Virus record (IMG/VR): IMGVR_UViG_3300031965_000107
Location: 1 to 32,806 of that record
From: a virus
Taxonomy: Duplodnaviria > Caudoviricetes
Direction: 5' to 3' (one strand)
Length of the DNA: 32,806 nt
Shown here piece after piece: positions 2,165 to 19,982 of the stretch. Numbering within the stretch: the first letter of the stretch is position 1; every line of letters starts with the position of its first letter. Position numbers and translations under genes: made by a program. Under the pieces are notes generated by a model. That model saw nothing but the letters and a program-made list of their open reading frames with translations, was not told the DNA's origin and ran no database searches.

Positions 2165-2644
2165 ATGGCGACTTTCTATACGCCCTATTACTACAACGAC
2201 TCTTACTTCTGGTATCTGACTGGTTCAGCGCCAGGGTCACTGTCCCCGTCTATTTCCGCATCCGCAAGCCTCTCGCCCTCGCTTTCGGCGAGCACGTCAC
2301 TCTCGCCCTCGCTTTCGGCGAGCACGTCACTCTCGCCTTCGCTTTCAGCGAGCGTGTCGCTCTCGCCTTCGCTTTCGTGGAGCGCGTCACTCTCGCCATC
2401 CGCCTCGCCCTCACCTGCCGCTCCGGCTGAAGTCATCACCTACGGCAATCAATGGGGCAGCCGCGGCACGGCGACCTCGTGGCAGCCTTTGCGCCAACTA
2501 AGCGGCAGTCCTTCCGTGAGCGCGTCTCTGTCGCCAAGCGCCTCGCCGAGTGCCTCACCGAGCCCTTCATTTCCGCCGCTCGATCGACTGTCGATCGGGC
2601 GGGATGATGACGACATCTTCGTGCTGTTCTTGGAGGCCGCATGA
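2165..2644 (+). CDS. Small Ser-rich repeat protein with aromatic N-terminus and acidic/hydrophobic C-terminus
   Basis: N-terminus MATFYTPYYYNDSYFWY, (Ser-X)30 at 2237-2416, (Ser-X)12 at 2501-2572, C-terminus DDDDIFVLFLEAA. ATGA overlap with the downstream glycosyltransferase. Confidence 0.8.
   Translation: MATFYTPYYYNDSYFWYLTGSAPGSLSPSISASASLSPSLSASTSLSPSLSASTSLSPSLSASVSLSPSLSWSASLSPSASPSPAAPAEVITYGNQWGSRGTATSWQPLRQLSGSPSVSASLSPSASPSASPSPSFPPLDRLSIGRDDDDIFVLFLEAA
2271..2400 (+). repeat. 30-bp tandem repeat, about 4.3 copies (encodes the 10-aa unit SLSPSLSAST)
   Basis: tctcgccctcgctttcggcgagcacgtcac at 2271-2300 and an identical copy at 2301-2330; diverged copies at 2331-2360 and 2361-2390. 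Confidence 0.95.
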
Positions 2645-3624
2645 GTCTGAAACTGTCGATTATCATTCCGGCGCGCAACGAACGCTTCCTGCAGCCGACC
2701 ATTGATAGCCTGCTCGCCGGTGCGACTGGCGACATTGAGATCCTCGCCTGCCTCGATGGGTATTGGCCCGATCCGCCGCTCCGCGACGATCCACGCGTCC
2801 GCGTGCTGCACTGGAGCGAACCCCGGGGGATGCGACCGTCGGAGAACACGGCGATCGCCGTCGCCACGGGCGACGTTCTCATGAAGCTCGACGCCCACTG
2901 TCTCGTCGCGCCCGGCTACGACGAGGTGCTGACCGCGGCGTGCGAGCCCGGCACGCTCGTCGTGCCGACGCGGCACAGCATCGATCCCGAACGCTGGCGG
3001 ACGAGCGCCGAGCCGGCGACCGGAGTCGAGCGGGGCGGCGCGGTGAAGTGGCGGCACTGGAACTACCACATCCTGACGTTTCCCTACCTGCCCAGCATGT
3101 ACGGCTCGGGACTGCACGCCGTGACGTTCCCGTGGGATCAGAACAAGGTCATCAACGAGGAGCGACAGGCCGTCCTAGTTGACGATCTCATGTCCTGCCA
3201 GGGCTCATGCTGGGTGCAACGCAAGGCCGACTTCGAGCGCCTGGGTTCGCTCGATCACGAGAACTACGGCTTCTATGGCGAAGCGATCGAAATCTGCAAC
3301 CGCGTTTGGATGACCGGGGGCAGGTGCGTGATCGCCAAGGGCACCTGGTACGCCCACCTCCACAAGGGGCGGGACGAAGGTCGCGGCTTCTACCTCAGCT
3401 TGCGAAAGAAGCGCGCCTCCGAAGCCTACGGAACGGAATTCTGGCTGAACAATCGTTGGCCTGGTGCGACGCGCACCTTTGAGTCGCTCGTCGAGCAGTT
3501 CTGGCCGCTCATCAGCCTGATGAAGGATCCGCGATATGCCTGGCCGGACACGTGGCGAGATTTTGATCGACATCGAGTCGCATTTGAGACTCGGCATCCA
3601 GACGAGATCCCGGCACATACCTAA
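2641..3624 (+). CDS. GT-A fold glycosyltransferase (GT2-like, with polypeptide GalNAc-transferase/GT27-like motifs)
   Basis: SIIIPARNE, KLDAHC (DxH, 2890-2901), GSCWVQRKADFERLGSLD, YGEAIEICNRVWMTGG, WYAHLHK. Confidence 0.9.
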   Translation: MSLKLSIIIPARNERFLQPTIDSLLAGATGDIEILACLDGYWPDPPLRDDPRVRVLHWSEPRGMRPSENTAIAVATGDVLMKLDAHCLVAPGYDEVLTAACEPGTLVVPTRHSIDPERWRTSAEPATGVERGGAVKWRHWNYHILTFPYLPSMYGSGLHAVTFPWDQNKVINEERQAVLVDDLMSCQGSCWVQRKADFERLGSLDHENYGFYGEAIEICNRVWMTGGRCVIAKGTWYAHLHKGRDEGRGFYLSLRKKRASEAYGTEFWLNNRWPGATRTFESLVEQFWPLISLMKDPRYAWPDTWRDFDRHRVAFETRHPDEIPAHT

Positions 3625-4178
3625 TCGTATCGAGGAGTTCTCATAATGCCCCGCGTTGGGATAATGCGTGCGCCAAGTGTTCGCCGAATCCCGGCTGCAT
3701 ATAGGCGCTTGCATTCGTTACATCTCCGGCTGCCGTCTGCGCGATTAGGTGCGGGTGGAAGCGTATGACCGCTTGGGCATGTGCGAGGCTTGGCCAATGC
3801 CGCTGCGCGGGCGATGTTCTCCTGTTGTGTAACGAGCTTCAGATGCGAGGGGTTGCAGCAGCGCCGGTTATTACAAGCCGCGTGGTCGAGCTGTGGGACC
3901 GTGTGCGCGAGACCGCTTGGCAGAGGTTCCACCAGCCATGCGTACAGGAGTCTGTGCAGATATATTTCTCGCCCCTTGAAACTGATCCTACCGTAACCGT
4001 TCTTTGCGGCACCGCTGGCGTTCCAGCAGTTTGTGGCCGAATCGATCTTGATTTTCGCGAAGATTCGCGAGATGTTTTTGATCGAGATGTGATGGATGGC
4101 GAGATACTGCGACTCAGCCACGTGCGCTGCCTCCGAATCAGTTGCGTTGTGGTTAGGGCCGCGGCTGTGCTCCGACAC
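3621..4178 (-). CDS. HNH homing endonuclease (HNH_3-like) with C-terminal Cys/His Zn-binding motif
   Basis: CWN..GYGRI..HRLLY..LDHAACNNRRCCNPSHL..VTQQEN, then CPSGH..RRCNECKR. Visibly lower GC than flanks; start codon uncertain. Confidence 0.85.
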   Translation of the reverse strand: MSEHSRGPNHNATDSEAAHVAESQYLAIHHISIKNISRIFAKIKIDSATNCWNASGAAKNGYGRISFKGREIYLHRLLYAWLVEPLPSGLAHTVPQLDHAACNNRRCCNPSHLKLVTQQENIARAAALAKPRTCPSGHTLPPAPNRADGSRRCNECKRLYAAGIRRTLGARIIPTRGIMRTPRYD

Positions 4179-4207
4179 TACCGCAGCCTTATCTATGGTA
4201 CCACATT

Positions 4208-4876
4208 ATGCCTGACCCGTTGACCTACGTTGCGACTAAGTATGCCCTGGATCTACATCGGCGCTCGCCGATCGAGATTCAGAACATTGGCCGCGACGAC
4301 CTCGCGCAGCTCTTCGTCGAGTTGGGCTTCCACGTGGGCGTCGAGGTCGGCGTCGAGCGCGGCCTGTACTCGGAGGTACTCTGCCGCGCGGGCCTGGAAC
4401 TGACGTGCGTCGATGGTTGGCGGGCCTACCGCGGGTACCGCGATCACGTGGACCAGGGGAAACTTGACGGGTTCTACGAGGAGGCGTATGCGCGACTCCG
4501 TCCATTCGGTGCCCGGATCATGCGGAAGTTCTCGCTCGAAGCCGTGCAGGACTTCGCGGACGGCTCGCTCGATTTCGTTTACCTGGACGGGAATCACGAT
4601 CTCCCGAACGTGATCAACGACATCCACGCTTGGGGTCGGAAGGTCCGCGTCGGGGGCATTCTGGCCGGGCATGACTACGTGCGCTATCATTGGCCGAACC
4701 AGATTCACGTCGTGCAAGCCGTCAACGCTTACACCGAGGCGTACGAGATCCATCCGTGGTTTCTCGCCGGGACCAAGGCGAAGGTACTAGGCGAGACGCG
4801 CGACACGGCGCGGTCCTGGTTCTGGGTGAAGCCGGCGCCGCGCACGAAGACGTACCGGGGCATCGTCAAACAGTGA
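4208..4876 (+). CDS. Class I SAM-dependent methyltransferase (Methyltransf_24-like; probable sugar O-methyltransferase)
   Basis: Motif I VEVGVERG; DGSLDFVYLDGNH; KVRVGGILAGHDY. Confidence 0.9.
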   Translation: MPDPLTYVATKYALDLHRRSPIEIQNIGRDDLAQLFVELGFHVGVEVGVERGLYSEVLCRAGLELTCVDGWRAYRGYRDHVDQGKLDGFYEEAYARLRPFGARIMRKFSLEAVQDFADGSLDFVYLDGNHDLPNVINDIHAWGRKVRVGGILAGHDYVRYHWPNQIHVVQAVNAYTEAYEIHPWFLAGTKAKVLGETRDTARSWFWVKPAPRTKTYRGIVKQ

Positions 4877-4884
4877 GGGATGCG

Positions 4885-5091
4885 ATGAAGATTAGAGACA
4901 CAGTCGAAGACATCAAGTGCGTCGGACGGCGTCGAATCGCAGTGAGCCTTTCAGATGAGCCAGCCGGACTCGTGCTGGTCATCGATCTGGATCGCACGAC
5001 TGGGCGGACCAACCTCGCCAACCTCGTGCTCGAGAAGCGCGAGGCGAAGAAGCTCGCGGCGACGATCAATCGGACGATCAAGCTCGTGTAG
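4885..5091 (+). CDS. Small hypothetical protein (68 aa)
   Basis: GAGGGA SD-like sequence precedes ATG 4885; fills the gap between neighbouring genes. Confidence 0.6.
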   Translation: MKIRDTVEDIKCVGRRRIAVSLSDEPAGLVLVIDLDRTTGRTNLANLVLEKREAKKLAATINRTIKLV

Positions 5092-5101
5092 GGGCCTTTC
5101 C

Positions 5102-5368
5102 ATGAGAGTCGACGCATGCGGTCGGTCCTACTACGAGGTGCCGGTCTTTCCAACCGGCCGCCTGAAAACCGCATTCGAAACGCTTGACGCGCAGGAGTGT
5201 TGCGAATGCCTAGCGTTGATTCATCACGGCACGGACCGGTACTTTCAGCGCAATGAGTCGACGGATGGTCTTGAAACTAGGGTGGCTGGCGTTCTGATGG
5301 CACTGACCTACGACGCGGTCTGTGGTCCGTGCGGCGATCGATTCCTGAATGAGACGGCAACGCGATGA
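5102..5368 (+). CDS. Small putative Zn-binding protein (88 aa)
   Basis: CCEC and CGPC pairs; ATGA overlap with the next gene. Confidence 0.55.
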   Translation: MRVDACGRSYYEVPVFPTGRLKTAFETLDAQECCECLALIHHGTDRYFQRNESTDGLETRVAGVLMALTYDAVCGPCGDRFLNETATR

Positions 5369-6045
5369 AGATCGCTGTCATTTCTGCCAACCTCGGGCGC
5401 TACGACCCAGACGTGCCGTGGGTGCCGCAGATCGTGCCCGCCGGCGTGACGGTCGAGGTGCATCGGCTGACCGACGCGACCTTCCCGCCGCGGCCGAAGG
5501 CGATGACCTCGGCGCTCCAGTGCGGGATCCCGAAGTGGTTCGGGGCAGACCTATTCCCAGGCGCAGATGTGTACCTCTGGGTGGACGCTTCGTGCGCGCT
5601 CCTGAATTCGCATGCAGTGACCCTGCTGCTTGAGCGGCTCGGAACGTCTAACCTCCTAGTGTTTCGGCATCCAGATCGCGCGACGATCGGCGAGGAGTAC
5701 GAGTTCCTCAAGACGCGCCTAGCACGACCTGGCGAGCGGTACCTGACCACGCGTTATGCCGGCGAATGGTTGGACGCCCAGTACGAGCACATCTGCGCTA
5801 GACACGCGTCCTTCGTCGACTATCAGCTCTTTGCGACGACCGCATTTATGTACCGGCCTGACCCGAGTGTGTTGGCGGTATTTAAAGAAACCTGGTTCGG
5901 GAAGACTCGATGGCACCTGCATGATCAATTGTTCTTCGCCTATGCCCTCGCGAAGAGCGATTGCAATTTCCGCGTGCTGCAGGAGAAATATACGGATTGT
6001 CCGTACCTTACATTCGTGCGGAACCGACATCGAAAGAGCGCATGA
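5365..6045 (+). CDS. Putative glycosyltransferase, DUF616/TOD1-MUCI70-like
   Basis: ISANLGRYD, YLWVDAS, FRHPDR..GEE, HDQLFF match my recollection of DUF616-type motifs (GxYD, WxD, HPxR, DQL). Confidence 0.7.
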   Translation: MKIAVISANLGRYDPDVPWVPQIVPAGVTVEVHRLTDATFPPRPKAMTSALQCGIPKWFGADLFPGADVYLWVDASCALLNSHAVTLLLERLGTSNLLVFRHPDRATIGEEYEFLKTRLARPGERYLTTRYAGEWLDAQYEHICARHASFVDYQLFATTAFMYRPDPSVLAVFKETWFGKTRWHLHDQLFFAYALAKSDCNFRVLQEKYTDCPYLTFVRNRHRKSA

Positions 6046-6695
6046 TGTTTATCTACGTTGTGACGAACACGGTCAACGGTAAGCAGTACGTTGGACAGAC
6101 GACTGTACCGATTCAAAAACGCTGGCAGCGTCACTGCGCTGCCGCGCGCGGCGCAAGGCCCGATTGTCGCGTCTTTCACGCGGCCATCAGGAAATACGGG
6201 CCAACATCGTTTTTGATCGAAACGATACTGCTCAAAAACGGAGCATCACAGACCGATCTTGACGCGCGCGAGCGCGAGACGATCATCGCCCTCGGGACGA
6301 TTGCGCCAAATGGTTACAACTTAAAGGAGGGCGGGTTGGGCGGAGCCCTCCATGCCGATACAAAGGCTAAACTCAGTGCATCGCTTCGAGGGCGCAGATT
6401 CAGTGCTGGACACCGCGCCAAGATCAGCGCCGCCCTAAAGGGTCGAACGTTTTCGAGTGAGACCTTGGCGCGGATGAGCAACGGCCAGCGCGGGCGGAAG
6501 CATTCACCTGAGACACTGCATCGCTTAAGTGAATCGCACCGTGGAATTATATCGCCAAATAAAGGGAAGTCACCATCCGCCGAGACGCGGCTGAAATTGA
6601 GCCTCGCTGGTATTGGGCGAATCGTCTCGGAGGCCACAAGAACCAAATTGAGCGCCGCGACGAGAAACCACTATGCGGCGAAGAACGCATCATGA
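6042..6695 (+). CDS. GIY-YIG homing endonuclease with NUMOD3 repeats
   Basis: FIYVVTN..KQYVGQT..KRWQRH..E..GYNL; C-terminal repeats such as HADTKAKLS, HSPETLHRLSESHRG, SAETRLKLS. ATGA overlaps at both ends; lower GC. Confidence 0.92.
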   Translation: MMFIYVVTNTVNGKQYVGQTTVPIQKRWQRHCAAARGARPDCRVFHAAIRKYGPTSFLIETILLKNGASQTDLDARERETIIALGTIAPNGYNLKEGGLGGALHADTKAKLSASLRGRRFSAGHRAKISAALKGRTFSSETLARMSNGQRGRKHSPETLHRLSESHRGIISPNKGKSPSAETRLKLSLAGIGRIVSEATRTKLSAATRNHYAAKNAS

Positions 6696-7411
6696 CCGAC
6701 CTGAATTGCCTGTACTACACCGCGAATCGCGTGCCGGCAGGTTTTGCCGCGACGATTCGCCGACACCTTCGCGAGGCCGCGGTTACTCAGGCGGGCCTGC
6801 CGCTCCAGATCATTGCTGTCTCGCAACAGCCACTGCCCTTCGACGATGACTTCAGTGACGTGAACATCTGTGTCGGTGAAACCGGCGCGTCGATCTACAA
6901 CTGCTACCGCCAGATCCTCATCGGGGCACAGGCGGCCATGACACCGTTCGTAGCCTGCGTAGAAGATGACACGCTTTATAACGATCAGCACTTCACGCAC
7001 CGGCCCACAACGGATGACGTCTTCACCTACAACCGGAACCGCTGGGTGCTCTGCGCCGATGGCACGTTCTACTACCGCGAACGGACACAGATGGCGATGT
7101 GCATCGCTCCGCGCGCGCTGCTCATCGAGACGCTTGAGGAGCGCTTTCGGAAGTGGCCCGAGCCGATCACGGACGAGGTCGCAAAAGCTGCCGGTTGGGG
7201 CGAGCCTGGACGGTATGAGCGCAACATGGGCTTGACGCCGCGCCGGCGCGAGTACTTCAGCACCGACCAGCCCTGCGTGACCGTGAACCACCGACACGGG
7301 CTGATGGGCGTGCGGAAGGTCCAGCCGACCGACACGGTCGTCCGCACGCTCGAACCGTGGGGCGACGGCGCCGCGCTGTGGAAGCGGCTGTTTGCGGACG
7401 AGGGCACCTGA
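6692..7411 (+). CDS. Putative GT-A glycosyltransferase (paralog of the C-terminal domain of 8853-10745)
   Basis: LYYT, YRQILIG, VACVEDDTLY..HF, DVFTYNRNRW, EPG, QP.V.VNH, PWG all have counterparts in the C-terminal half of 8853-10745. EDD sits at the DxD position. Confidence 0.65.
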   Translation: MTDLNCLYYTANRVPAGFAATIRRHLREAAVTQAGLPLQIIAVSQQPLPFDDDFSDVNICVGETGASIYNCYRQILIGAQAAMTPFVACVEDDTLYNDQHFTHRPTTDDVFTYNRNRWVLCADGTFYYRERTQMAMCIAPRALLIETLEERFRKWPEPITDEVAKAAGWGEPGRYERNMGLTPRRREYFSTDQPCVTVNHRHGLMGVRKVQPTDTVVRTLEPWGDGAALWKRLFADEGT

Positions 7412-7412
7412 G

Positions 7413-8420
7413 ATGCCGTCCTTCGATTACCTCATCGTCGGGGCCGGCTTCGCCGGCGCGGTCTGCGCCGAACGGCTCGCGGCCGCGGGTCGCCAGGTGC
7501 TTGTCATCGACCGGCGCGCCTATGTCGGCGGGAACGCGCATGATGAGTTCAACGACGCAGGGATCCTCTGCGGAAAGCACGGCGCCCACGTGTTTCACAC
7601 GAACTCGAGGCGAGTGTTGGACTACCTCTCTCAGTTTACGGAGTGGCGATCCTACGAGCATCGTGTCCTGTCCTCGGTGAACGGGCAACTCTTGCCAGTG
7701 CCGATCAATCAGACGACGCTCGAAGCCTTTGGAGGGGATCTGGTCGCCGCAGAGAAGGCTATGATTGAGCCCTACACGCGGAAGCAATGGGGCGAGTACG
7801 CCGACCAGTTGTCCCCGATCGTGTTGGCGCGGATTAAGACACGGGAGACCAGGGACGATCGGTACTTTACGGACACCTATCAGGCGATGCCACTGCACGG
7901 GTACACGCGGCTGTTCGAGCGGATCCTCGATCACCCGAACATCACGGTCCAAATCGAGACGCCGTACGAGGCGCTCGCGGCCAAGGGTCATACCTACGGG
8001 GCCATCATTTGGTCGGGCCCGATTGACGCCTTCTTCAACCACTGCCTGGGTGCGCTACCGTATCGCTCCGCTACGTTCATCTTCGCGACATTCGACCACG
8101 GCCCGTACCAGGCTGTCGGCGTCGTGAATCATCCGAGCGAGCGGGTACCCTTCACGCGGTCCATTGAGTTCAAGCATATCACGGGCCAGGTGCATCGCGA
8201 CACGACGGTTGCGCACGAATATCCGACCGCTGAGGGTGAGCCCTTCTGGCCCATTCCGACGGCGGCCAACCTGGAACGGTATCGGCAGTACCAGGCCCTC
8301 GCGCGTGAGCGGCGCGATGTGTATTTCGTCGGACGGCTCGGCACCTACAAGTACATCGACATGGACATCGCGGTGGCGCAAGCTCTCGCACTGACGCGCA
8401 GGCTAGTTGGAGGTCAATGA
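7413..8420 (+). CDS. glf: UDP-galactopyranose mutase
   Basis: IVGAGFAG FAD motif, GGN, GAHVFHT, YTRKQWG, RYFTDTYQAMP, GRLGTYKYIDMD. Confidence 0.95.
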   Translation: MPSFDYLIVGAGFAGAVCAERLAAAGRQVLVIDRRAYVGGNAHDEFNDAGILCGKHGAHVFHTNSRRVLDYLSQFTEWRSYEHRVLSSVNGQLLPVPINQTTLEAFGGDLVAAEKAMIEPYTRKQWGEYADQLSPIVLARIKTRETRDDRYFTDTYQAMPLHGYTRLFERILDHPNITVQIETPYEALAAKGHTYGAIIWSGPIDAFFNHCLGALPYRSATFIFATFDHGPYQAVGVVNHPSERVPFTRSIEFKHITGQVHRDTTVAHEYPTAEGEPFWPIPTAANLERYRQYQALARERRDVYFVGRLGTYKYIDMDIAVAQALALTRRLVGGQ

Positions 8421-8842
8421 TGGGCATGTTCTTCAAAGGAAAATGCGCGCAATGCTGGGAGCCGATTGACGATTGCCGGTGCGGCGACAGGTTGCCTGTA
8501 CACGGCACGGGAAACTTCGGATCCGTCATCAATTACGAGAGGGGGACACCATTGGAACGCGCTGATACACCGCTCGACACTGGTGAATTCCGCGGACCGA
8601 CGGCCAGCCCGGCGCGGGTCAGGCCTGCCGTCGGATCGACTGACGCGCACGGCTTTCCGCTGGCCATTCAGGACGTAATGAACGGCGCGCGGATCTCGCG
8701 CGTAGCTTGGGAGGACGACCAGATCCAGGTCTTTTTGCTGGATGGCCTGCTCCGAATTCGCAAGGCCGAGGGGACGGTCCATCCGTTGATCGTCTCGGAC
8801 GGTGACCTCTACGCGACCGACTGGTTCGTCGTTCGGGGGTAG
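8417..8842 (+). CDS. Protein with N-terminal Cys cluster and C-terminal DUF2829/Tad2-like domain
   Basis: C-terminus FPLAIQDVMNGARISRVAW...PLIVSDGDLYATDWFVV fits the DUF2829 pattern F..A...l..G..v.R..W...S..D..A.DW.vv. N-terminus CAQC..CRC..H. Confidence 0.65.
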   Translation: MMGMFFKGKCAQCWEPIDDCRCGDRLPVHGTGNFGSVINYERGTPLERADTPLDTGEFRGPTASPARVRPAVGSTDAHGFPLAIQDVMNGARISRVAWEDDQIQVFLLDGLLRIRKAEGTVHPLIVSDGDLYATDWFVVRG

Positions 8843-8852
8843 GTGAAGCCAG

Positions 8853-10745
8853 ATGCCTGATCTCTCCGTGCTGATCCCTGCACGCAACGAGGTCTTCCTC
8901 GCGCAGACGATTGCCGATGTCGTCGCCAATCTGCGCGGGGATACGGAGGTCATCGCCGTCTGCGATGGCGGCTGGCCGGATCCGCCGATCGCGGACCATC
9001 CGCGGGTGCAGCTCATCTACCTGCCGACGCCGATCGGGCAGCGTGCGGCGACCAACCTGGCTGCCCGGGCGAGCGCCGCGCGGTACGTCATGAAGCTCGA
9101 CGCGCACTGCGCGCTGGCTGAGGGGTTCGATGTCGAGCTCGTGCGCGCCGGCGACGAACTCGGGCCGGACGTGACGCAGATTCCGGCGATGATTAACCTC
9201 CACGCCTTCAACTGGCGGTGCCGAGCGTGCGGGCGCGAGACCTACCAGGGGCCGCGACCCGAGCGATGCGCGGCGGATGTGGCCCACGATCGCGAGCTCG
9301 CCGTCATGCCGCCAGCCTGCGGCGAGGCGCAAGGCTTCGACCAAGTCCTGGTCTGGCAGCCCCGACGCCGGCGCGCACAGGGGAACGGGTCAGCGGGCGC
9401 GGGCGGGTTCGCGCGGACGGAGTTCTGGCGGTTCGACCAGGAGCTGAAGTTCGCCTACAAAGGCCCCGTCATTCGGGGACAGGAGCAGGCCGAGATTGCC
9501 GACGTGATGAGCAGCGTCGGGGCCTGTTTCGTGATGCGCCGTGATCGGTTTCTCGAGCTCGGCGGGCTCGATGAGGATCATGGGAGCTGGGGCGCCTTCG
9601 GCACAGAGATCGCCTGCAAGTCGTGGCTCAGCGGCGGACGGCAGGTCGTGAACAAGCGCACCTGGTTCGCGCACATGTTTCGCACGAACGGCGCCTTTTC
9701 GTTTCCCTACGCCATACGTGGGGCCGATCAGGACTACGCACGCCGGTACAGCCAGAACATGTGGTACGGCAACCTCTGGCCTGGTCAGACTAGACCTCTG
9801 AGCTGGCTACTCGACCATTTCTGGCCCATCCGGGGCTGGGCCGATGTCAAGGGCGCGGAGCGGCTGGCGTTCGTGCGTGCGCGCGGCGCCGCGTTTCGGG
9901 CATCCGTCGCACCATCGCCGGCGTCGATCCTGGTGCCACGCGCCGAGCGTCCGGTCGCACCGGCGGTGCCGACGAAATCACTCGTCTACTACAGCGACCT
10001 TCGACTCGATCCGACGATCGCGCGGGCCGTCCAGGCGCAGCTTCGGCGAGCCGCGCCGGGTCTGCCGATCGCCGTCGTGACGCTGCAGCCGACCGACTTT
10101 CGCGGCGATGTCAACCTTGTGCTTGACTTGGAGCGCGGCTACCTTGCGATGTTCCGGCAGATCCTCGCTGGGCTTGAAGCCCTCGACACCGATGTCGCGT
10201 TTCTGGTCGAACATGACATCCTGTATCACCCCTCGCACTTCGCCTTCGTCCCGCCGCGGCGCGACGTGTTCTACTACAACCGGCATACCTGGAAAGTCGA
10301 CGCCGAGACCGGTCGGGCCCTGCACTACCGCTGTGACCAGACGTCCGGCCTATGCGCTGACCGGGCGTTGCTCGTGGAACACTACCGGCGCCGGGTCAAG
10401 GTGATCGAAGCCGAGGGCTATCATCGGAACTTCGGCTTCGAGCCGGGGACGAACCGCTGGTCCCGCGCGCTTGACCCGCACGGGGCCGATCACTGGTTCT
10501 CGCCCCAGCCGAACATCGACATCCGCCACGGGCGCAACCTGACGCCGTCGCGCTGGCGACAGGACCAGTTTCGGAACCGCCGGACCTGTCAGGGCTGGAC
10601 CGAATCCGACGAGGTGCCCGGCTGGGGCCGGACGCGCGGGCGATTCGCCGAGCTGCTCGCGACCATCCTCGAGACGCCGGCAGCGCAGGGATCTATCGAC
10701 GATGTCGCATCGCACGGTCAGGAAGAGGAGCCATCTCATGTCTGA
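8853..10745 (+). CDS. Two-domain glycosyltransferase: N-terminal GT27-like GT-A domain plus C-terminal second GT-A-like domain
   Basis: SVLIPARNE, KLDAHC (9099-9110), GACFVMRRDRFLELGGLD, WGAFGTEIACKSWLSGG, FAHMFR; Pro/Ala linker; second domain with VEHDILY. AGGTGA SD. Confidence 0.9.
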   Translation: MPDLSVLIPARNEVFLAQTIADVVANLRGDTEVIAVCDGGWPDPPIADHPRVQLIYLPTPIGQRAATNLAARASAARYVMKLDAHCALAEGFDVELVRAGDELGPDVTQIPAMINLHAFNWRCRACGRETYQGPRPERCAADVAHDRELAVMPPACGEAQGFDQVLVWQPRRRRAQGNGSAGAGGFARTEFWRFDQELKFAYKGPVIRGQEQAEIADVMSSVGACFVMRRDRFLELGGLDEDHGSWGAFGTEIACKSWLSGGRQVVNKRTWFAHMFRTNGAFSFPYAIRGADQDYARRYSQNMWYGNLWPGQTRPLSWLLDHFWPIRGWADVKGAERLAFVRARGAAFRASVAPSPASILVPRAERPVAPAVPTKSLVYYSDLRLDPTIARAVQAQLRRAAPGLPIAVVTLQPTDFRGDVNLVLDLERGYLAMFRQILAGLEALDTDVAFLVEHDILYHPSHFAFVPPRRDVFYYNRHTWKVDAETGRALHYRCDQTSGLCADRALLVEHYRRRVKVIEAEGYHRNFGFEPGTNRWSRALDPHGADHWFSPQPNIDIRHGRNLTPSRWRQDQFRNRRTCQGWTESDEVPGWGRTRGRFAELLATILETPAAQGSIDDVASHGQEEEPSHV

Positions 10746-11856
10746 ACTCCATCGCGTCACACGCTTCGTACGCAGCCATCTCTGGGCGATCCTGCCGGAG
10801 AAGATGGACGCCATCTGCGAACTGCTCGATCTCCGCGCGCAGGGTGTCACGTTCACGGCCGAGGAAATCCAGGCAAGACTCGGTGCCGTGCAGCCGCGCG
10901 AGCCCCAGCGGGTTGAGACCGTCGCCGTGATCCCCCTCCAGGGGATTCTCGCCAAGAAGATGAACATGATGACCCGGATGAGCGGCGGGACGTCGCTCGA
11001 ACAGTTCATCGCGCAGGTGCGCGCCGCCGTCGACGACGAGAGCGTGCGGGCCATCGTCATCGAGGGCGACACGCCCGGCGGCACCGTCGAAGGCTGCATC
11101 GAAGCCGCGACGGCCCTCTACGGGCTGCGGGGAAAAAAGCCGATCGTGGCGGTCGCCGATCCGCTGCTCGCTTCGGCGGGCTATTGGATGACCAGCCAGG
11201 CCGACGAGATCGTGGCGTGCCCGAGCGCCTCGGTGGGGAGCCTCGGCGTGTTCACCATGCACAACGATTTTTCGGCCATGAACGAGCGAGTGGGCGTCAA
11301 GCCGACCTACATCTTCAACGGCGCCTACAAAGTGGAGGGCAACCCAGACGAACCACTGTCGGACGAGGCCCGGGCGTTCATGCAGGCCCGCGTCGACGAG
11401 CGCGGCGAGGACTTCATCAAGGCGGTCGCGCGCGGCCGTGGCATCTCGGCGGCGAAGGTCCGGTCGGACTTTGGCCAGGGCCGAGTCTTCTTCGCCAAGC
11501 AGGCACTTGAGGCTGGGATGATCGACCGCATCGGCACGCTGGAGGAGACGATCGCCCGCTACGTGGGCCGGCGCGGGGGCGTCGTCGTGACGCGGATGGA
11601 AAGCGCGGCGGAATCGCCTGAGTTGGTTGCGGCGACGGTGGCGGCTGGGACCAGCCCGGACCAGGACGCAGTCGACCCGGCGGCCGACGCCGAGACGGCA
11701 GTCGTGGCCGCGACTACCGAAGATCCGGAGCCCGAGCCAGAGGCGGACGACGGAGCGGACCCAAAATCGCGGGCCGCGCTCGATGCGCAGCAGGCGGCGG
11801 AAGCCGAGACGGACGAAGCCGCGATCCTCGCGGCGCTGGCGGAGTCGGCGGACTGA
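10738..11856 (+). CDS. S49-family (SppA/lambda gpC-like) prohead protease with acidic C-terminal extension
   Basis: DTPGGTV, ASAGYW, VGSLGV, GAYK, GRVF..QA...GMIDRIG. GAGGAG SD; start overlaps the GT gene end by 8 nt. Confidence 0.92.
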   Translation: MSELHRVTRFVRSHLWAILPEKMDAICELLDLRAQGVTFTAEEIQARLGAVQPREPQRVETVAVIPLQGILAKKMNMMTRMSGGTSLEQFIAQVRAAVDDESVRAIVIEGDTPGGTVEGCIEAATALYGLRGKKPIVAVADPLLASAGYWMTSQADEIVACPSASVGSLGVFTMHNDFSAMNERVGVKPTYIFNGAYKVEGNPDEPLSDEARAFMQARVDERGEDFIKAVARGRGISAAKVRSDFGQGRVFFAKQALEAGMIDRIGTLEETIARYVGRRGGVVVTRMESAAESPELVAATVAAGTSPDQDAVDPAADAETAVVAATTEDPEPEPEADDGADPKSRAALDAQQAAEAETDEAAILAALAESAD

Positions 11857-12330: not shown

Positions 12331-12530
12331 CTCGCCCGCTCTCTCCATACTCATCTCTGACACACGGCCGTTCGTGCAACCCGTCCCGTAGGACGCGCGC
12401 GCACGGACGGCGCGACAGCTCACGACCTCCGTCGAGCGTCAGCGGCTGTCCTGGGACCCACCACATCGGTGGGCAGGGCATCCCTGGCGCTTTTCGCGTG
12501 TACGGAGGGCGACAGCCCGAGGAGCGGAAG

Positions 12531-13913
12531 ATGGATCTCAAGGCAATCAGGCAGCGTCACGCGGACCTCAAGGCCGATTTGTTCCGCCTGACCAAGGCGC
12601 GAGCGGACCTCGGCGTCAAGGCCGTCGCCGAGAAGCGGAGCCTGACCGACGAGGAACGCACCGCGTTCACGGAGTTCGGTCCGAAGATCGAGGCCACCCA
12701 GGCGTCACTGGCCGAGGCGGCCAGCCTCCTCGAGGCGGCCGAAGCGGCCAACGAAGCCGAGCGGCAGACCCAGATCACCGGCATCGACCCGGATGCCGAG
12801 GCGGCGGGTCGGGCCGCGGCCGCCGCGGGTGTCACCCGCCGCGTCCAGGTGACCGATCGCGCCCTGGAGCAGCCGGGCCTCTGGGGTCGACAGCTCCAAG
12901 CGATCCGGAACTTCGCCATCAACGGCGGCGCAGCGCACACACCCGCCGAGGACATGGTCGTGCTGCGGCCGCTGATGGCTGCGGCGACGGGCCTGAACAC
13001 GGACGTGCCGTCCGAGGGCGGATTCCTGGTCCCCCAGGCGCGCGCGAGCACCGTGCTGCAGCGTGCCTACCAGATCGGCGAGATTCTCCGGCGGCTCACG
13101 CCCATGCCGATCGGGCCGGGCTTCAACGGCGTGAAGATGCCGGCGATCGACGAGACGAGCCGGGCGGACAGCTCCCGCTATGGCGGCATCGTCTCAGGCT
13201 GGCTCGGCCAGGGCAACACCCTGACGAGCGGCAAGCCCAAGTTCCGCGAGATCGACCTGAAGCTCCGGAAGGTCGGCGCGTTCGTCTACGCGACCGACGA
13301 GCTTCTGATTGACGCCGTCGCGCTCGAGGCGTGGATCAACCGGTACCTCCCGCTCGAGCTGCAGTTTCGGATCGAGGATGCGGTCATCAACGGCGTGGGC
13401 AGCAACCAGCCGCTCGGCATCCTCAACTCGCCGGCCCTGATCACCGTGACCCGCGCGACCGCGAGCAAGGTCACCGCCGACGACATGCGCGGCATGATCA
13501 ATCGCCTGTGGGCGCCGCTCCGCGGGCGCGCGGTGTTCCTGGTCGACCAGTCAGTCGAGCCGGAGCTCGATGTGCTGTCGTTCGCGATCGGGACGGCGGG
13601 TGTCCTCGACCCGAGCTACAAGCCGGCTGGCGACGGGCGGCCCTACGCGACCTACAAGAACATCCCGATCATCCCGGTGGAGTACTGCGCGGCGCTTGGG
13701 ACGACGGGCGACATCATCCTCGTGGCCTTCGATGAGTACCTGTTCATCGACAAGGGCGGCGTGGATCAGGCGGTGTCGCTGCATGTCGCCTTCTTGACCG
13801 ACGAAGCGGTCTACCGGTTCATCGCCCGGGTCGACGGACAGGCGACCTGGAACGCGGCGCTGACGCCCAAGTCGGGCGGCTCGACGCTCTCGTGCATCGT
13901 GGTCCTGAGCTAG
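12531..13913 (+). CDS. Major capsid protein, HK97 fold with N-terminal coiled-coil delta-like domain
   Basis: GGFLVP, TDELLID, AVINGVGSNQPLGILN, YRFIARVDG; helical N-terminus; GAGGAG SD. Confidence 0.95.
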   Translation: MDLKAIRQRHADLKADLFRLTKARADLGVKAVAEKRSLTDEERTAFTEFGPKIEATQASLAEAASLLEAAEAANEAERQTQITGIDPDAEAAGRAAAAAGVTRRVQVTDRALEQPGLWGRQLQAIRNFAINGGAAHTPAEDMVVLRPLMAAATGLNTDVPSEGGFLVPQARASTVLQRAYQIGEILRRLTPMPIGPGFNGVKMPAIDETSRADSSRYGGIVSGWLGQGNTLTSGKPKFREIDLKLRKVGAFVYATDELLIDAVALEAWINRYLPLELQFRIEDAVINGVGSNQPLGILNSPALITVTRATASKVTADDMRGMINRLWAPLRGRAVFLVDQSVEPELDVLSFAIGTAGVLDPSYKPAGDGRPYATYKNIPIIPVEYCAALGTTGDIILVAFDEYLFIDKGGVDQAVSLHVAFLTDEAVYRFIARVDGQATWNAALTPKSGGSTLSCIVVLS

Positions 13914-15063: not shown

Positions 15064-16089
15064 ATGGCTGGGACGATCGTCCAATCGGCCGTCCTCGTTG
15101 GCGTCGTCCGCAGGCTGACGTTTGCCTGCACGGCCGACGCGGCCGATGGCTCCTTCCCCAGCACCGAGATCACGACGAAGTTCGAGGGGTCGCTGCTCAA
15201 ACTGGTGACCAACCCGGGCGCGTCGGCGTCGACGTCGCCCTCAGCCTCGATCTCCCCCTCGGTGTCCGCATCCGCGTCCGTGTCGCCGTCGAGCAGCCGG
15301 TCGCCCTCGGTGTCCGCGTCCGCGAGCCGGTCGCCGTCCGTGTCGCCCTCGGCCTCCGTCTCGCCGTCCGCCTCAGTCTCCCCGAGCTCGAGCCGGAGTC
15401 CGAGCAAGTCGATTTCGCCGTCGGCGTCGACAAGCCCGTCCGTGTCGAGTTCCGCGTCCGTGAGCCCGAGCACGTCGCTGTCGCCGTCCGCCAGTTTGAG
15501 CCCGAGCGTCAGCGCGTCGGTGTCGGCCTCCGCATCGGTGAGCCCGTCGTCGTCATACAGCCCGAGCGCGTCGATCAGCCCATCCGTCTCGGCATCGGAG
15601 TCGGTGAGCCCCAGCGCGTCGGTGAGCCCGAGCGTCTCGGCGTCGGCTTCGATCTCGCCCTCGGTGAGCGCGTCGGCGTCGATCTCCCCGTCGGTGTCCG
15701 CCTCAGTCAGCGCCTCGGCCTCGGTCTCGCCGAGCGCGTCGGTGAGCCCCAGCGCCTCAGTGAGCCCGAGCGTCTCGGCGTCGGCGTCCGTCTCGCCGTC
15801 GGTCAGCGCCTCGGCCTCGGTCTCGCCGAGCGCGTCAGTGAGCCCGACCGAGGGGGCGCCGACGGACAACTACGACATTCGCATCCTCGATCAACGTGGC
15901 ATCGATGTGCTCCAGGGGGTCGGAGCCAACCGGGATCAGACGGTGTCAGAAGAGGCCGCCATCGTCTACAGCGGGACGAGTCTCCACCCGCGGGTCGATT
16001 ACACCGACACGCTAACGCTCGAACTCACGAACAACGTGGTCGCCAGTGCGGTCATGGTGATCGACCTGTACTACTCGACCGGCGGGTGA
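15064..16089 (+). CDS. Putative virion protein with internal 208-aa (Ser-X)104 tract
   Basis: Globular-looking 53-aa N-part and 80-aa C-part flank a strict Ser-alternating tract; lies between the capsid and connector genes. Confidence 0.85.
15223..15846 (+). repeat. (Ser-X)104 low-complexity coding repeat (units SPSASV / [10 protein letters not shown])
   Basis: Every second residue is Ser for 208 aa, using mixed TCN and AGY codons. Confidence 0.97.
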
Positions 16090-18245: not shown

Positions 18246-19334
18246 ATGGCCGGCAAATACGGATCGCCGAGTGTTCTCATACTCGTGGACGGCTACAACC
18301 TGCTCGCCGCGAAGCTTCAGAACTTGACCTGGAAGCACGAGGCGCTCCAGGAGAAGAGCGATGGGCTGGGCGACGAGTGGGCAGAGCACCGCCCGACGGG
18401 GATGTCTCGCGTCACGCTGACCCAGGAGGGCGCCTTTTTCGACACGACCGCCGACGCCATCCATGACGCCATGTCCGCGAGCGTGCCGGGCTCTCCGCAG
18501 GCGACGGCGCGCATCATCTGTCTGGGCTTCGCCGGACAGGTGATCGGGAATGCGTTCATGGGGCTCCAGGCGGCGTTCTCCGTGGCCTACGACGTGCTCG
18601 GGCAGCTCGGCGCGCTGACGAAGGCGAATGTTCAGTACCTCATCTCCGGCCAGGTCGATCACGGCGTCATCCTGCATCCACTCGCAGCGCACGACTACGA
18701 CTGGACGGGGGACACGGTCGATGACACCGCCGCCTCGAGCGATGGCGGCGTCGGGTATCTCCAGATGACGGCCGGGTTCGGGAGCTTCACCGGCGTCATC
18801 CAGCACAGCACGGACGGGAACAACTGGGACACGCTCCTGACCTTCGACGCGATCTCCGCGCCGGGGGCGACGCGGAAGACCGTCTCGGGCTCGGTGCGCC
18901 AGTATTTGCGATTCAATGGCACGGTCTGGGGCGACGTCTCGCCGAGCGCGTCGGTCAGTCCGTCCGCGTCCGTGTCGCCGTCGAGCTCCGTTTCGCCGTC
19001 GGCGTCGACGAGCCCGTCGGTCTCCAGTTCCGCGTCCGTGAGCCCGAGCGCCTCCGTCTCGCCCTCCGCGAGCCTGAGCCCGAGCATCAGTGCGTCCGTC
19101 TCGGCGTCCGCGTCCGTCAGTCCGAGCAGCTCGCTGAGCCCGAGCGCCTCCGTAAGCCCCAGCGCGTCGGTGAGCCCGAGCGTGTCAGCGTCCGCGTCCG
19201 TGTCGCCGAGCAGTTCCCTGTCGCCCTCGGCGAGTCTCTCGCCGTCGGTGTCGGCGTCGACGTCGGCCTCGCCCTCGGCGGAAGCGGGCGTGGCGGGGGA
19301 GGCGACAGTGTTCTGCGGCTTCGCGAGGAGTTGA
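18246..19334 (+). CDS. Tail-tube-like protein with extra C-terminal domain carrying a (Ser-X)57 tract
   Basis: N-terminal ~140 aa is similar to 19557-19982 (MAGKYGS, GDEWAEHRPTGM, YDVLGQLGALT); extra beta domain follows; Ser tract precedes a final hydrophobic strand. Confidence 0.8.
   Translation: MAGKYGSPSVLILVDGYNLLAAKLQNLTWKHEALQEKSDGLGDEWAEHRPTGMSRVTLTQEGAFFDTTADAIHDAMSASVPGSPQATARIICLGFAGQVIGNAFMGLQAAFSVAYDVLGQLGALTKANVQYLISGQVDHGVILHPLAAHDYDWTGDTVDDTAASSDGGVGYLQMTAGFGSFTGVIQHSTDGNNWDTLLTFDAISAPGATRKTVSGSVRQYLRFNGTVWGDVSPSASVSPSASVSPSSSVSPSASTSPSVSSSASVSPSASVSPSASLSPSISASVSASASVSPSSSLSPSASVSPSASVSPSVSASASVSPSSSLSPSASLSPSVSASTSASPSAEAGVAGEATVFCGFARS
18939..19280 (+). repeat. (Ser-X)57 low-complexity coding repeat
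   Basis: Strict Ser alternation for 114 aa. Confidence 0.97.
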
Positions 19335-19336
19335 TC

Positions 19337-19567
19337 GTGACGCCCGACGAGGTGGCGCGTGCGTACGGGGCGGCCGCCGAGACCGCTCGGCGCGCGCGGT
19401 CGACGTGGGAGACGACCACGGATCTCCCGGACAAGGACGCGGCCGGCGTCGTCATGCGCCAGGCCACGGCGCTCGAACGGTCGCTCGAAAGTTGGATCGC
19501 CAAGCGCGCGCTTCGTGCGGCGCTGGCACACGGCGCACACGTAGGAGGAGGATCCGATGGCCGGTAA
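19337..19567 (+). CDS. Small helical hypothetical protein
   Basis: GAGGAG SD 6 nt before GTG 19337; fills the gap between the tail-tube paralogs. Confidence 0.5.
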   Translation: MTPDEVARAYGAAAETARRARSTWETTTDLPDKDAAGVVMRQATALERSLESWIAKRALRAALAHGAHVGGGSDGR

Positions 19568-19982
19568 GTACGGGTCGCAGTCAATCACCGTCACGCTCGA
19601 GGATGCCCCGGGCGGGACCGCGCGCACCATCACCCAGTTCATCCTGACGATGGGCGGCATCAAGATCACCGCCCTGACGCAGCCGTCGCACGCCTTCGGG
19701 GACTCCTGGGAGGAGCACACCCCGACGGGGATGAAACAGGGCGATCCGATCACCCTGACGGGCTACTGGGACACGACGTTGACCACGGGGCCACACGTCG
19801 TCTTCCTCTCACCCGATGACGGGCCACAGGACGACGGGCGCGAGCTGGTGGTCGTCTTCGGGGACTCGAAGACGATGACGATGGATACGCGACTCATCAG
19901 CTACGCCGTGCTCGGGAAGAATGGCGCGCTGACCGAGTTCGAAGCGGTCCTGCAGCCGACGGGCGCGATGACCTGGAGCTAG
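19557..19982 (+). CDS. Major tail tube protein
   Basis: 141 aa beta-rich protein, very strong SD (AGGAGGAGG), immediately upstream of the tail chaperones; FGDSWEE..PTG..ITLTGYWD pattern. Confidence 0.8.
   Translation: MAGKYGSQSITVTLEDAPGGTARTITQFILTMGGIKITALTQPSHAFGDSWEEHTPTGMKQGDPITLTGYWDTTLTTGPHVVFLSPDDGPQDDGRELVVVFGDSKTMTMDTRLISYAVLGKNGALTEFEAVLQPTGAMTWS

Follow-up and report, generated by a model that had tools for sequence, protein, structure and literature searches.

A soluble GALNT-like glycosyltransferase pair in a phage structural module and its likely alternating-serine substrates

Why would a siphophage encode, among the genes for its own particle, two enzymes resembling the eukaryotic polypeptide N-acetylgalactosaminyltransferases (GALNTs; family GT27), and what would these enzymes modify? 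The question is raised by IMG/VR record IMGVR_UViG_3300031965_000107, of which we analysed a stretch of 32,806 nucleotides (the window). This stretch corresponds to the structural module of a siphophage that has not been cultured; it belongs to a 53.9-kb contig and covers only part of the genome. It encodes an S49 protease, an HK97-type capsid protein, an adaptor, head closure, tail completion and tail tube proteins, a tape measure and tail proteins, together with a sugar cassette at 2641-10745. The cassette comprises a glycosyltransferase of 327 aa (GT-A), a methyltransferase, a weak MUCI70-like glycosyltransferase, a 239-aa glycosyltransferase, a UDP-galactopyranose mutase and a glycosyltransferase of 630 aa (GT-B, 8853-10745). 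Our observations concern motifs, conservation, predicted folds, gene order and co-occurrence, and they suggest that the phage likely O-glycosylates (Ser-X)n tracts by means of this soluble GALNT-like pair, with GT-B acting first. The features that carry the argument are as follows.

2641-3624, + strand: GT-A, type-A GALNT-like glycosyltransferase, 327 aa, soluble, no lectin domain (motifs, profiles, model)
8853-9908, + strand: GT-B N-domain, type-B GALNT-like transferase, likely the initiating enzyme (motifs, profiles, model)
9966-10745, + strand: GT-B C-domain, second GT-A-type fold with an EHD motif, paralogue of the product of 6692-7411, likely for chain extension
2165-2644, + strand: 159-aa protein, candidate acceptor with 30 consecutive alternating Ser, tract at about 2237-2416
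15064-16089, + strand: 341-aa protein, candidate acceptor with 105 alternating Ser/Thr, tract at about 15223-15852
18246-19334, + strand: major-tail-protein-like (PHROG 9522, E 8.9e-15), candidate acceptor with 57 alternating Ser near the C-terminus, tract at about 18939-19280

GT-A carries the motifs LDAHC, QGSCW, FERLGSLD, FYGEAIEI, EICNRVWMTGG and AHLHK, and the corresponding series in GT-B is LDAHC, GACF, FLELGGLD, WGAFGTEI, EIACKSWLSGG and AHMFR. A preliminary description, made from the DNA letters alone, had quoted these motifs and proposed a GT27 resemblance; the motifs are all where it placed them, and GALNTs proved to be the best PDB matches in both sequence and fold. With phmmer, GALNTs ranked top in the PDB for both enzymes (best E 1.1e-6 for GT-A and 1.1e-4 for GT-B), and family profiles matched PDB GALNTs at E values of 3e-11 and 4e-12, respectively; rank 3 for the GT-A profile was a Bacteroides GT2 enzyme (3bcv), over the N-terminal 90 positions only. 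Sequence identity to GALNTs is about 15-22%. The D-x-H motif and the distal His are invariant in 116 of 116 GT-A homologues, 105 of 105 GT-B homologues and all 186 domains of the locus set described below. They correspond to D84-x-H86 and H239 in GT-A (H239 equals H359 of GalNAc-T2, T2) and to D83-x-H85 and H274 in GT-B. The enzyme family comprises 411 representatives at 50% identity with E values of at most 1e-30, and 497 viral loci.

The predicted structures point the same way. AlphaFold models had pLDDT values of 94.7 (GT-A) and 92.6 (GT-B). Among the matches listed by Foldseek, the GT-A model retrieved polypeptide GalNAc-transferase entries only (ranks 1-48), and the GT-B model retrieved such entries until a chondroitin polymerase at rank 47. 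By VIA-align, the GT-A model reached Z scores of 25.8 (8v9q, root-mean-square deviation 3.7, 284 residues aligned) and 24.3 (8uhv) versus 18.3 for the next match, a GT2 enzyme, while the GT-B model reached 26.1 (deviation 2.6, 264 aligned) and 24.0 versus 19.0, again for a GT2 enzyme, so that GALNTs exceed the best GT2 by about 6-7 Z units for both models. An ordinary polysaccharide GT2 as the best structural match, the outcome that the preliminary description had named as contrary to its proposal, is thus ruled out by the VIA-align Z scores, though Pfam puts both enzymes in PF00535; Foldseek likewise placed GALNTs first.

PF00535 was the only Pfam domain found in either enzyme. As had been noted from the letters, a ricin-B lectin domain is absent: Pfam reports none, GT-A consists entirely of catalytic domain, and the C-domain of GT-B has a GT-A-type fold. 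In the models, the first strand of the fold begins at residue 4-5 in both proteins, which leaves no N-terminal type II membrane anchor or stem. A zinc-ribbon-like insert with four near-invariant cysteines (C123, C126, C139 and C156) occupies GT-B residues 123-156 (window 9219-9320) and is present in type B only. Feature neighbours listed in the Atlas include GT2 clusters of Bacillota and Actinomycetota.

How the two enzymes divide the work can be approached from their relatives. The 186 domains taken from the window, from 80 viral loci and from bacterial loci, the only sequences in the tree, divide into type A (110 domains) and type B (76 domains). Both types occur in 65 of the 80 viral loci and type A alone in 15, while none has two B copies; type A is present in a variable number of one to three copies per locus and type B is single. 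The Pro-x-Pro pocket of GALNTs consists of F280, W282 and F361, and little activity is left in the mutants F361A and W282A, according to the accessible parts of PMC4432651, PMC6994419 and bioRxiv 2020.06.25.171371, the first of which also assigns E334 to the sugar-nucleotide site. In type B, T2 F280 (F200 in GT-B numbering, 71/76) and F361 (F276, 75/76) have their counterparts, Tyr stands at W282 throughout (Y202, 76/76), and W331 (W246) and R362 (R277) are retained in every domain; in the GT-B homologue alignment (n=105), F200, Y202 and F276 are each present in all 105. Type A, in contrast, has Gly at the F200 column in 93 and His at the F276 (F361) column in 89 of 110 domains, mostly Phe at the W331 site and mostly Lys at the R362 site; GT-A itself has His at the F361 site and Phe at the W331 site.

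The donor loop shows the reverse pattern. The E334 site is Glu in 103 and Asp in seven of the 110 type-A domains and Glu in all 116 GT-A homologues (E214 in GT-A), and it is Q, M, F or V in type B; the N335 site is Gly in type B and A, P or F in type A. The complete WGGEN loop (W331, E334, N335) is therefore kept by neither type, as B has only its Trp and A only its Glu. The earlier remark that the first paralogue retains the Glu of WGGE and the second has lost it is thereby extended to the whole family, and the A/B differences agree with its suggestion of different donors or steps. E334 and N335 of GALNTs bind the GalNAc ring. As neither type keeps both, these sites do not identify the donor and do not support the proposed N-acetylhexosamine (HexNAc). 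The first sugar need not be GalNAc, and UDP-GalNAc seems a rather doubtful donor.

The same description had taken both enzymes as initiating transferases, which we narrow to one: the aromatic pocket for peptide binding is kept in type B alone, together with W331 and R362, so this type is probably the initiator. We infer from these residues that it recognises the peptide and that type A enters at another step or a later one. That both paralogues initiate on peptide with different donors or site preferences, GT-A for example placing HexNAc or hexose on other serines, appears unlikely to us. GT-A and GT-B are equally GALNT-like in fold, E334 is kept in 116/116 GT-A homologues, the GT-A gene adjoins a tract gene here, as it often does in relatives, and an alignment of GT-A with T4 yields a partial pocket, F163/W165 (F in 67 and W in 54 of 116 homologues); moreover, the accessible portions of the literature describe Toxoplasma T3 and human T7 and T10 as acting on peptides with a different pocket. 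Against this, type A is without the W331, F361 and (mostly) R362 equivalents, and its variable copy number beside a single B is what would be seen for elongating enzymes.

What, then, would the initiating enzyme act on? Three proteins of the window contain unbroken tracts of 30, 105 and 57 units in which every second residue is Ser, and Pro stands at -1, +1 or +3 of the tract Ser in 20/30, 80/105 and 47/57 cases (147/192 in total). Pooled tracts contain 8447 Ser versus 43 Thr (>99% Ser). The stop of the 159-aa tract gene overlaps the GT-A start, the 341-aa tract gene is placed between the capsid and head-tail adaptor genes, and the 57-unit tract is in frame with the major-tail-protein match, which makes this candidate acceptor a tail-tube homologue; for the other two, a virion location is suggested by gene position. 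The tail-tube-like genes at 18246-19334 and 19557-19982 are neighbours with identical first seven residues, and the Ser tract is found in the first only.

Enzymes and tracts are associated in both directions. With a tract defined as at least 12 alternating S/T, tracts were present in 69 of 80 viral loci anchored on the enzymes (the best of 497 such loci) versus none of 19 capsid-matched and none of 23 weak-GT2 loci, the sets amounting to 1228, 259 and 376 kb of sequence, respectively. The capsid controls were anchored on distant capsid relatives, and a twentieth, the close relative G001, which has both enzyme and tract, was left out. With a stricter motif count, 66 of the 80 loci had a tract, all on the same strand and 35 within 100 bp. 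Conversely, the repeat pattern led to 131 loci, of which 112 were taken (one per contig) and 110 records examined; enzymes were found in 54 of these and in 17 of the 23 records that are at least 90% complete. These counts support the earlier suggestion of a Ser/Pro-rich peptide acceptor, and the tracts are probably glycosylated by the cassette.

A cellular version of the system exists in Patescibacteria. A partial scan of genome contigs gave seven full-length enzyme matches. The genes for types A and B lie, in one Ca. Woesebacteria genome (G130), among methyltransferase and nucleotide-sugar genes and are followed by proteins of 2092 and 1428 aa with up to 320 alternating residues, and then by tatC, rho and radA, which indicate that the locus is chromosomal. 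The enzyme family was matched in 16 of 251 sampled genomes of the Woesebacteria class, which we take to be Microgenomatia, and all-Ser repeats were matched in 10 of these 16 versus 2 of the 235 negative genomes (Fisher p 2e-12, uncorrected; read by eye). A full B domain was found in 14 genomes, with a tract downstream in 11, and the sequence of the other three ends within about 2 kb. An initial impression that bacterial loci have type A only and no tracts was an artefact of the 10-kb flank, as the wider view shows both B and tracts. When the tree is rooted between A and B, the B copies of bacteria (15 + 1 + 1) are placed among those of viruses; with this phage-anchored sampling, the placement gives no direction of transfer between phages and Patescibacteria.

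Several features accompany the bacterial loci. In five, tatC follows the tract, with two tatA-like open reading frames (ORFs) between them in four loci and a single one in the fifth (by eye); tatA-like ORFs and tatC stand after the giant Ser-repeat gene in L280 (11200-12633), L282, L286, L287 and L297. By analogy, tatA and tatC beside these genes are possibly a dedicated export route like accessory Sec; a twin-arginine motif was found in none of 12 bacterial tract proteins. At their C-terminus the giant tract proteins of L280, L282, L286, L287, L289 and L297 have a motif of about 40 aa in common (W-N-x-x-G-R-P ... G-F-N ... L-E-x-W-x-G). This motif also occurs as a small stand-alone ORF after tract genes and may be an anchor or export tag. 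A Woesebacteria type-B enzyme (1181 aa, L279 13807-17349) has an intein (PF14890) in its C-terminal region. One locus labelled Gammaproteobacteria (L083, genome G131) shares the gene order of Woesebacteria locus L085 in a 1.1-Mb genome and is probably mislabelled or mis-binned.

Some observations weigh against the proposal that the GALNT-like pair glycosylates the tracts. Six of the 23 near-complete tract-bearing viral records are without the enzymes, and three of these, the small records G035, G090 and G121, lack any PF00535 match, so that tracts can exist without a phage-encoded glycosyltransferase. No tract was seen in the flank examined in 11 of the 80 enzyme loci, several of which are short or cut, and in G131 type B is followed by fibre-like genes without a Ser tract. 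The co-occurrence counts include near-identical phages and overlapping sets, and the statistics ignore kinship. Outside the repeats, only 6 of 77 parts of tract proteins match a PHROG whose name is tail or virion structural and most match nothing, and therefore the virion location rests mostly on gene position. Side-chain roles are carried over from GALNTs at about 20% identity; in hidden Markov model alignments Y202 falls on the W282-equivalent Trp of T1 and T3, but the T2 alignment shifts it by two to Y284, so that this equivalence holds in only two of three families.

The enzyme-less records bear on the reading that another enzyme (of the C-domain family, the MUCI70-like glycosyltransferase or one of the host) primes Ser and the GALNT-like pair only extends. 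The type-B family profile had no strong match in the records G065, G098, G047, G108 and G121. PF04451, tried as a marker of nucleocytoplasmic large DNA viruses, matched neither the enzyme-less large tract-bearing records nor the controls and is thus uninformative here. G121 (L199) is a small phage with a typical tract and might rely on a host enzyme. Such tract-bearing phages, the presence of the C-domain family in 64 of 80 loci and the lack of E334/N335 in GT-B are in keeping with another primer; the invariant peptide-pocket aromatics of B are hard to square with a glycan acceptor, and we hold this reading to be very unlikely.

About as improbable, or slightly more so, is that the acceptor of the enzymes is a carbohydrate, such as the surface polysaccharide of the host (receptor masking), the Ser tracts being unglycosylated spacers that are merely linked. 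It accords with the placement in PF00535 and with cellular homologues among nucleotide-sugar genes typical of surface-glycan loci, whereas the GALNT-GT2 gap in Z score, the two-way co-occurrence with tracts in phages and bacteria, the position inside the late structural operon and a Pfam scan of the window without flippase or polymerase speak against it. That the cassette hypermodifies phage DNA can be practically set aside: phage GT-A-fold enzymes do glycosylate modified bases and the PHROG label of the methyltransferase's best family is 'DNA methyltransferase', but the window is without base-modification genes for the part of the genome that it covers, and the location among virion genes, the peptide pocket and the tract link argue otherwise.

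The preferred explanation, O-glycosylation of the Ser tracts with GT-B first, draws on the remaining genes of the cassette, which lie beside the following structural genes.

4208-4876, + strand: S-adenosylmethionine (SAM) methyltransferase (PF13578), likely for glycan O-methylation
5365-6045, + strand: TOD1/MUCI70-like putative glycosyltransferase, 226 aa (PF04765, weak, E 0.0066, below cut-off)
6692-7411, + strand: 239-aa glycosyltransferase, stand-alone paralogue of the GT-B C-domain (29% identity, E 2e-21)
7392-8420, + strand: UDP-galactopyranose mutase (PF03275, E 3.7e-67), which would supply UDP-galactofuranose (UDP-Galf)
10702-11856, + strand: S49 prohead protease
12498-13913, + strand: HK97-type major capsid protein

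Modification would take place within the cytoplasm of the infected host cell. In the GT-B N-domain, D83, H85 and H274 are predicted to hold Mn2+ and a nucleoside diphosphate sugar, while F200, Y202 and F276 would grip the Pro of the S-P-S-A-S-V repeat, as F280, W282 and F361 do in GalNAc-T2; the domain would then attach the first sugar, presumably with retention as in GT27 and GT60. Extension and capping of the chain are likely the task of GT-A, the two C-domain-type glycosyltransferases, the MUCI70-like enzyme, the mutase (through Galf) and the methyltransferase. Head and tail proteins would thereby come to bear stiff bottle-brush stalks, probably serving adhesion, stability or shielding. This catalysis, the order of its steps and its purpose are what we infer from the genes.

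The cassette order is the same in the two closest relatives (L001 and L002), where the portal gene is just upstream. The methyltransferase gene is kept in L001, L002 and L085, and the mutase gene is also present in L001 and L002. No PDB sequence match was found for the MUCI70-like protein, and attempted CAZy family assignment gave none for it or the GT-B C-domain. The cassette also contains homing endonuclease genes, HNH and GIY-YIG/NUMOD3, at 3621-4178 (-) and 5961-6695 (+), which were not seen at the corresponding places in L001. A Tad2-like gene (PF11195, E 6e-4, below cut-off) lies at 8417-8842 between the mutase and GT-B, and L002 has a similar ORF at the same place.

In the literature searched, mostly outside subscription papers, we found no account of GALNT-like enzymes that accompany serine tracts in phages or Patescibacteria, and INPHARED phages had no match to either enzyme at E 0.01. 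Since the family is large yet unmatched among the cultured phages searched, a coat of glycans may be common on environmental virions. We tentatively suggest that type B belongs to the GT27 lineage and glycosylates polypeptides at oxygen as a soluble enzyme without a lectin domain. Outside eukaryotes it would then be the nearest kin of the enzymes that initiate mucin glycosylation, and would define a mucin-type pathway of prokaryotes and viruses for (Ser-X)n proteins, spread between phages and Patescibacteria, with one bacterial clade next to a Tat translocase. If true, dense O-glycosylation in bacteria or phages could be primed in a third manner, in addition to GtfA/B of serine-rich repeat proteins (SRRPs) and Che8-type enzymes; the GALNT peptide-recognition pocket would exist outside eukaryotes, and the origin of mucin-type glycosylation would become testable. 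Assays should be easy for enzymes that are small and soluble and have a simple repeat as substrate, and such enzymes could be tools for mucin mimics.

Among known systems, GT27 (GalNAc-T1, 8v9q/1xhb; T2, 2ffu/4d0t; T3, 6s24; Toxoplasma T3, 8uhv) has the closest solved fold to the predicted models of both enzymes. Shared with it are D-x-H and the distal His, Pro-rich hydroxy-amino-acid substrates nearby and, for type B, W331, R362 and the F280/W282/F361 pocket. In the available text, D-x-H is confined to the GT27 and GT60 clade (PMC7185993), and the metal triad and lectin domain are given as GT27 features (PMC11074326). Unlike GT27 enzymes, the phage enzymes have no transmembrane anchor, stem or ricin lectin, split WGGEN between two paralogues, carry in type B a Cys4 insert and a fused second glycosyltransferase domain, and have candidate acceptors with >99% Ser at alternate positions. 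They lack three GT27 features (lectin, anchor and complete WGGEN) and should be called GT27-like, not canonical GT27.

GT60 (Skp1/polypeptide alpha-GlcNAc-transferases; PF11397) shares D-x-H and Ser/Thr-type polypeptide glycosylation with GT27 and occurs in prokaryotes and protists, as far as the accessible text of PMC7185993 goes. The phage enzymes have weak structural matches to phage proteins labelled 'Glycosyltransferase, GlcNAc'; their PF11397 matches are few and weak (4 of 116 type-A members, best E 8e-4; 1 of 21 type-B proteins, E 0.038). No GT60 entry appears in the PDB fold lists, which says nothing decisive on GT60 membership.

Mycobacteriophage virion glycosylation was reportedly found by Freeman et al. 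2023, known to us through citing papers. In Che8 (gp108-110, with gp110 as the essential glycosyltransferase) and Corndog (gp38, likewise essential), phage-encoded glycosyltransferases modify capsid and tail tube, as described in the accessible parts of PMC12363180, PMC13445384 and PMC10877033. Kinship with Che8 gp108-110 was looked for by profile comparison and not found: gp110 has no D-x-H and no profile match to either family (probability 0.1-0.2%, with a single-sequence side that lowers sensitivity), and gp108 has only the generic N-terminal GT2 part in common. The parallel is that of phage-encoded glycosyltransferases for virion proteins, here as predicted from the genes.

The SRRP systems (Fap1, GspB and PsrP, with GtfA/GtfB and accessory Sec) combine alternating-Ser tracts with co-located priming and extending cytoplasmic glycosyltransferases, according to the available portion of PMC6973325. 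A GtfA/B-type enzyme (PF00534) was over the cut-off in none of five complete relatives (controls 14/14) and is absent from the window, and SecA2/SecY2 export, a long signal peptide and an LPXTG anchor were found in none of the 30 window ORFs scanned. Unlike in SRRP systems, the tracts are Pro-rich and the acceptors are phage structural-module proteins, and the bacterial version continues with tatA-tatA-tatC instead of secA2/Y2. With its alternating-Ser repeat acceptors and co-located glycosyltransferases, the cassette functionally resembles SRRP glycosylation with a different primer.

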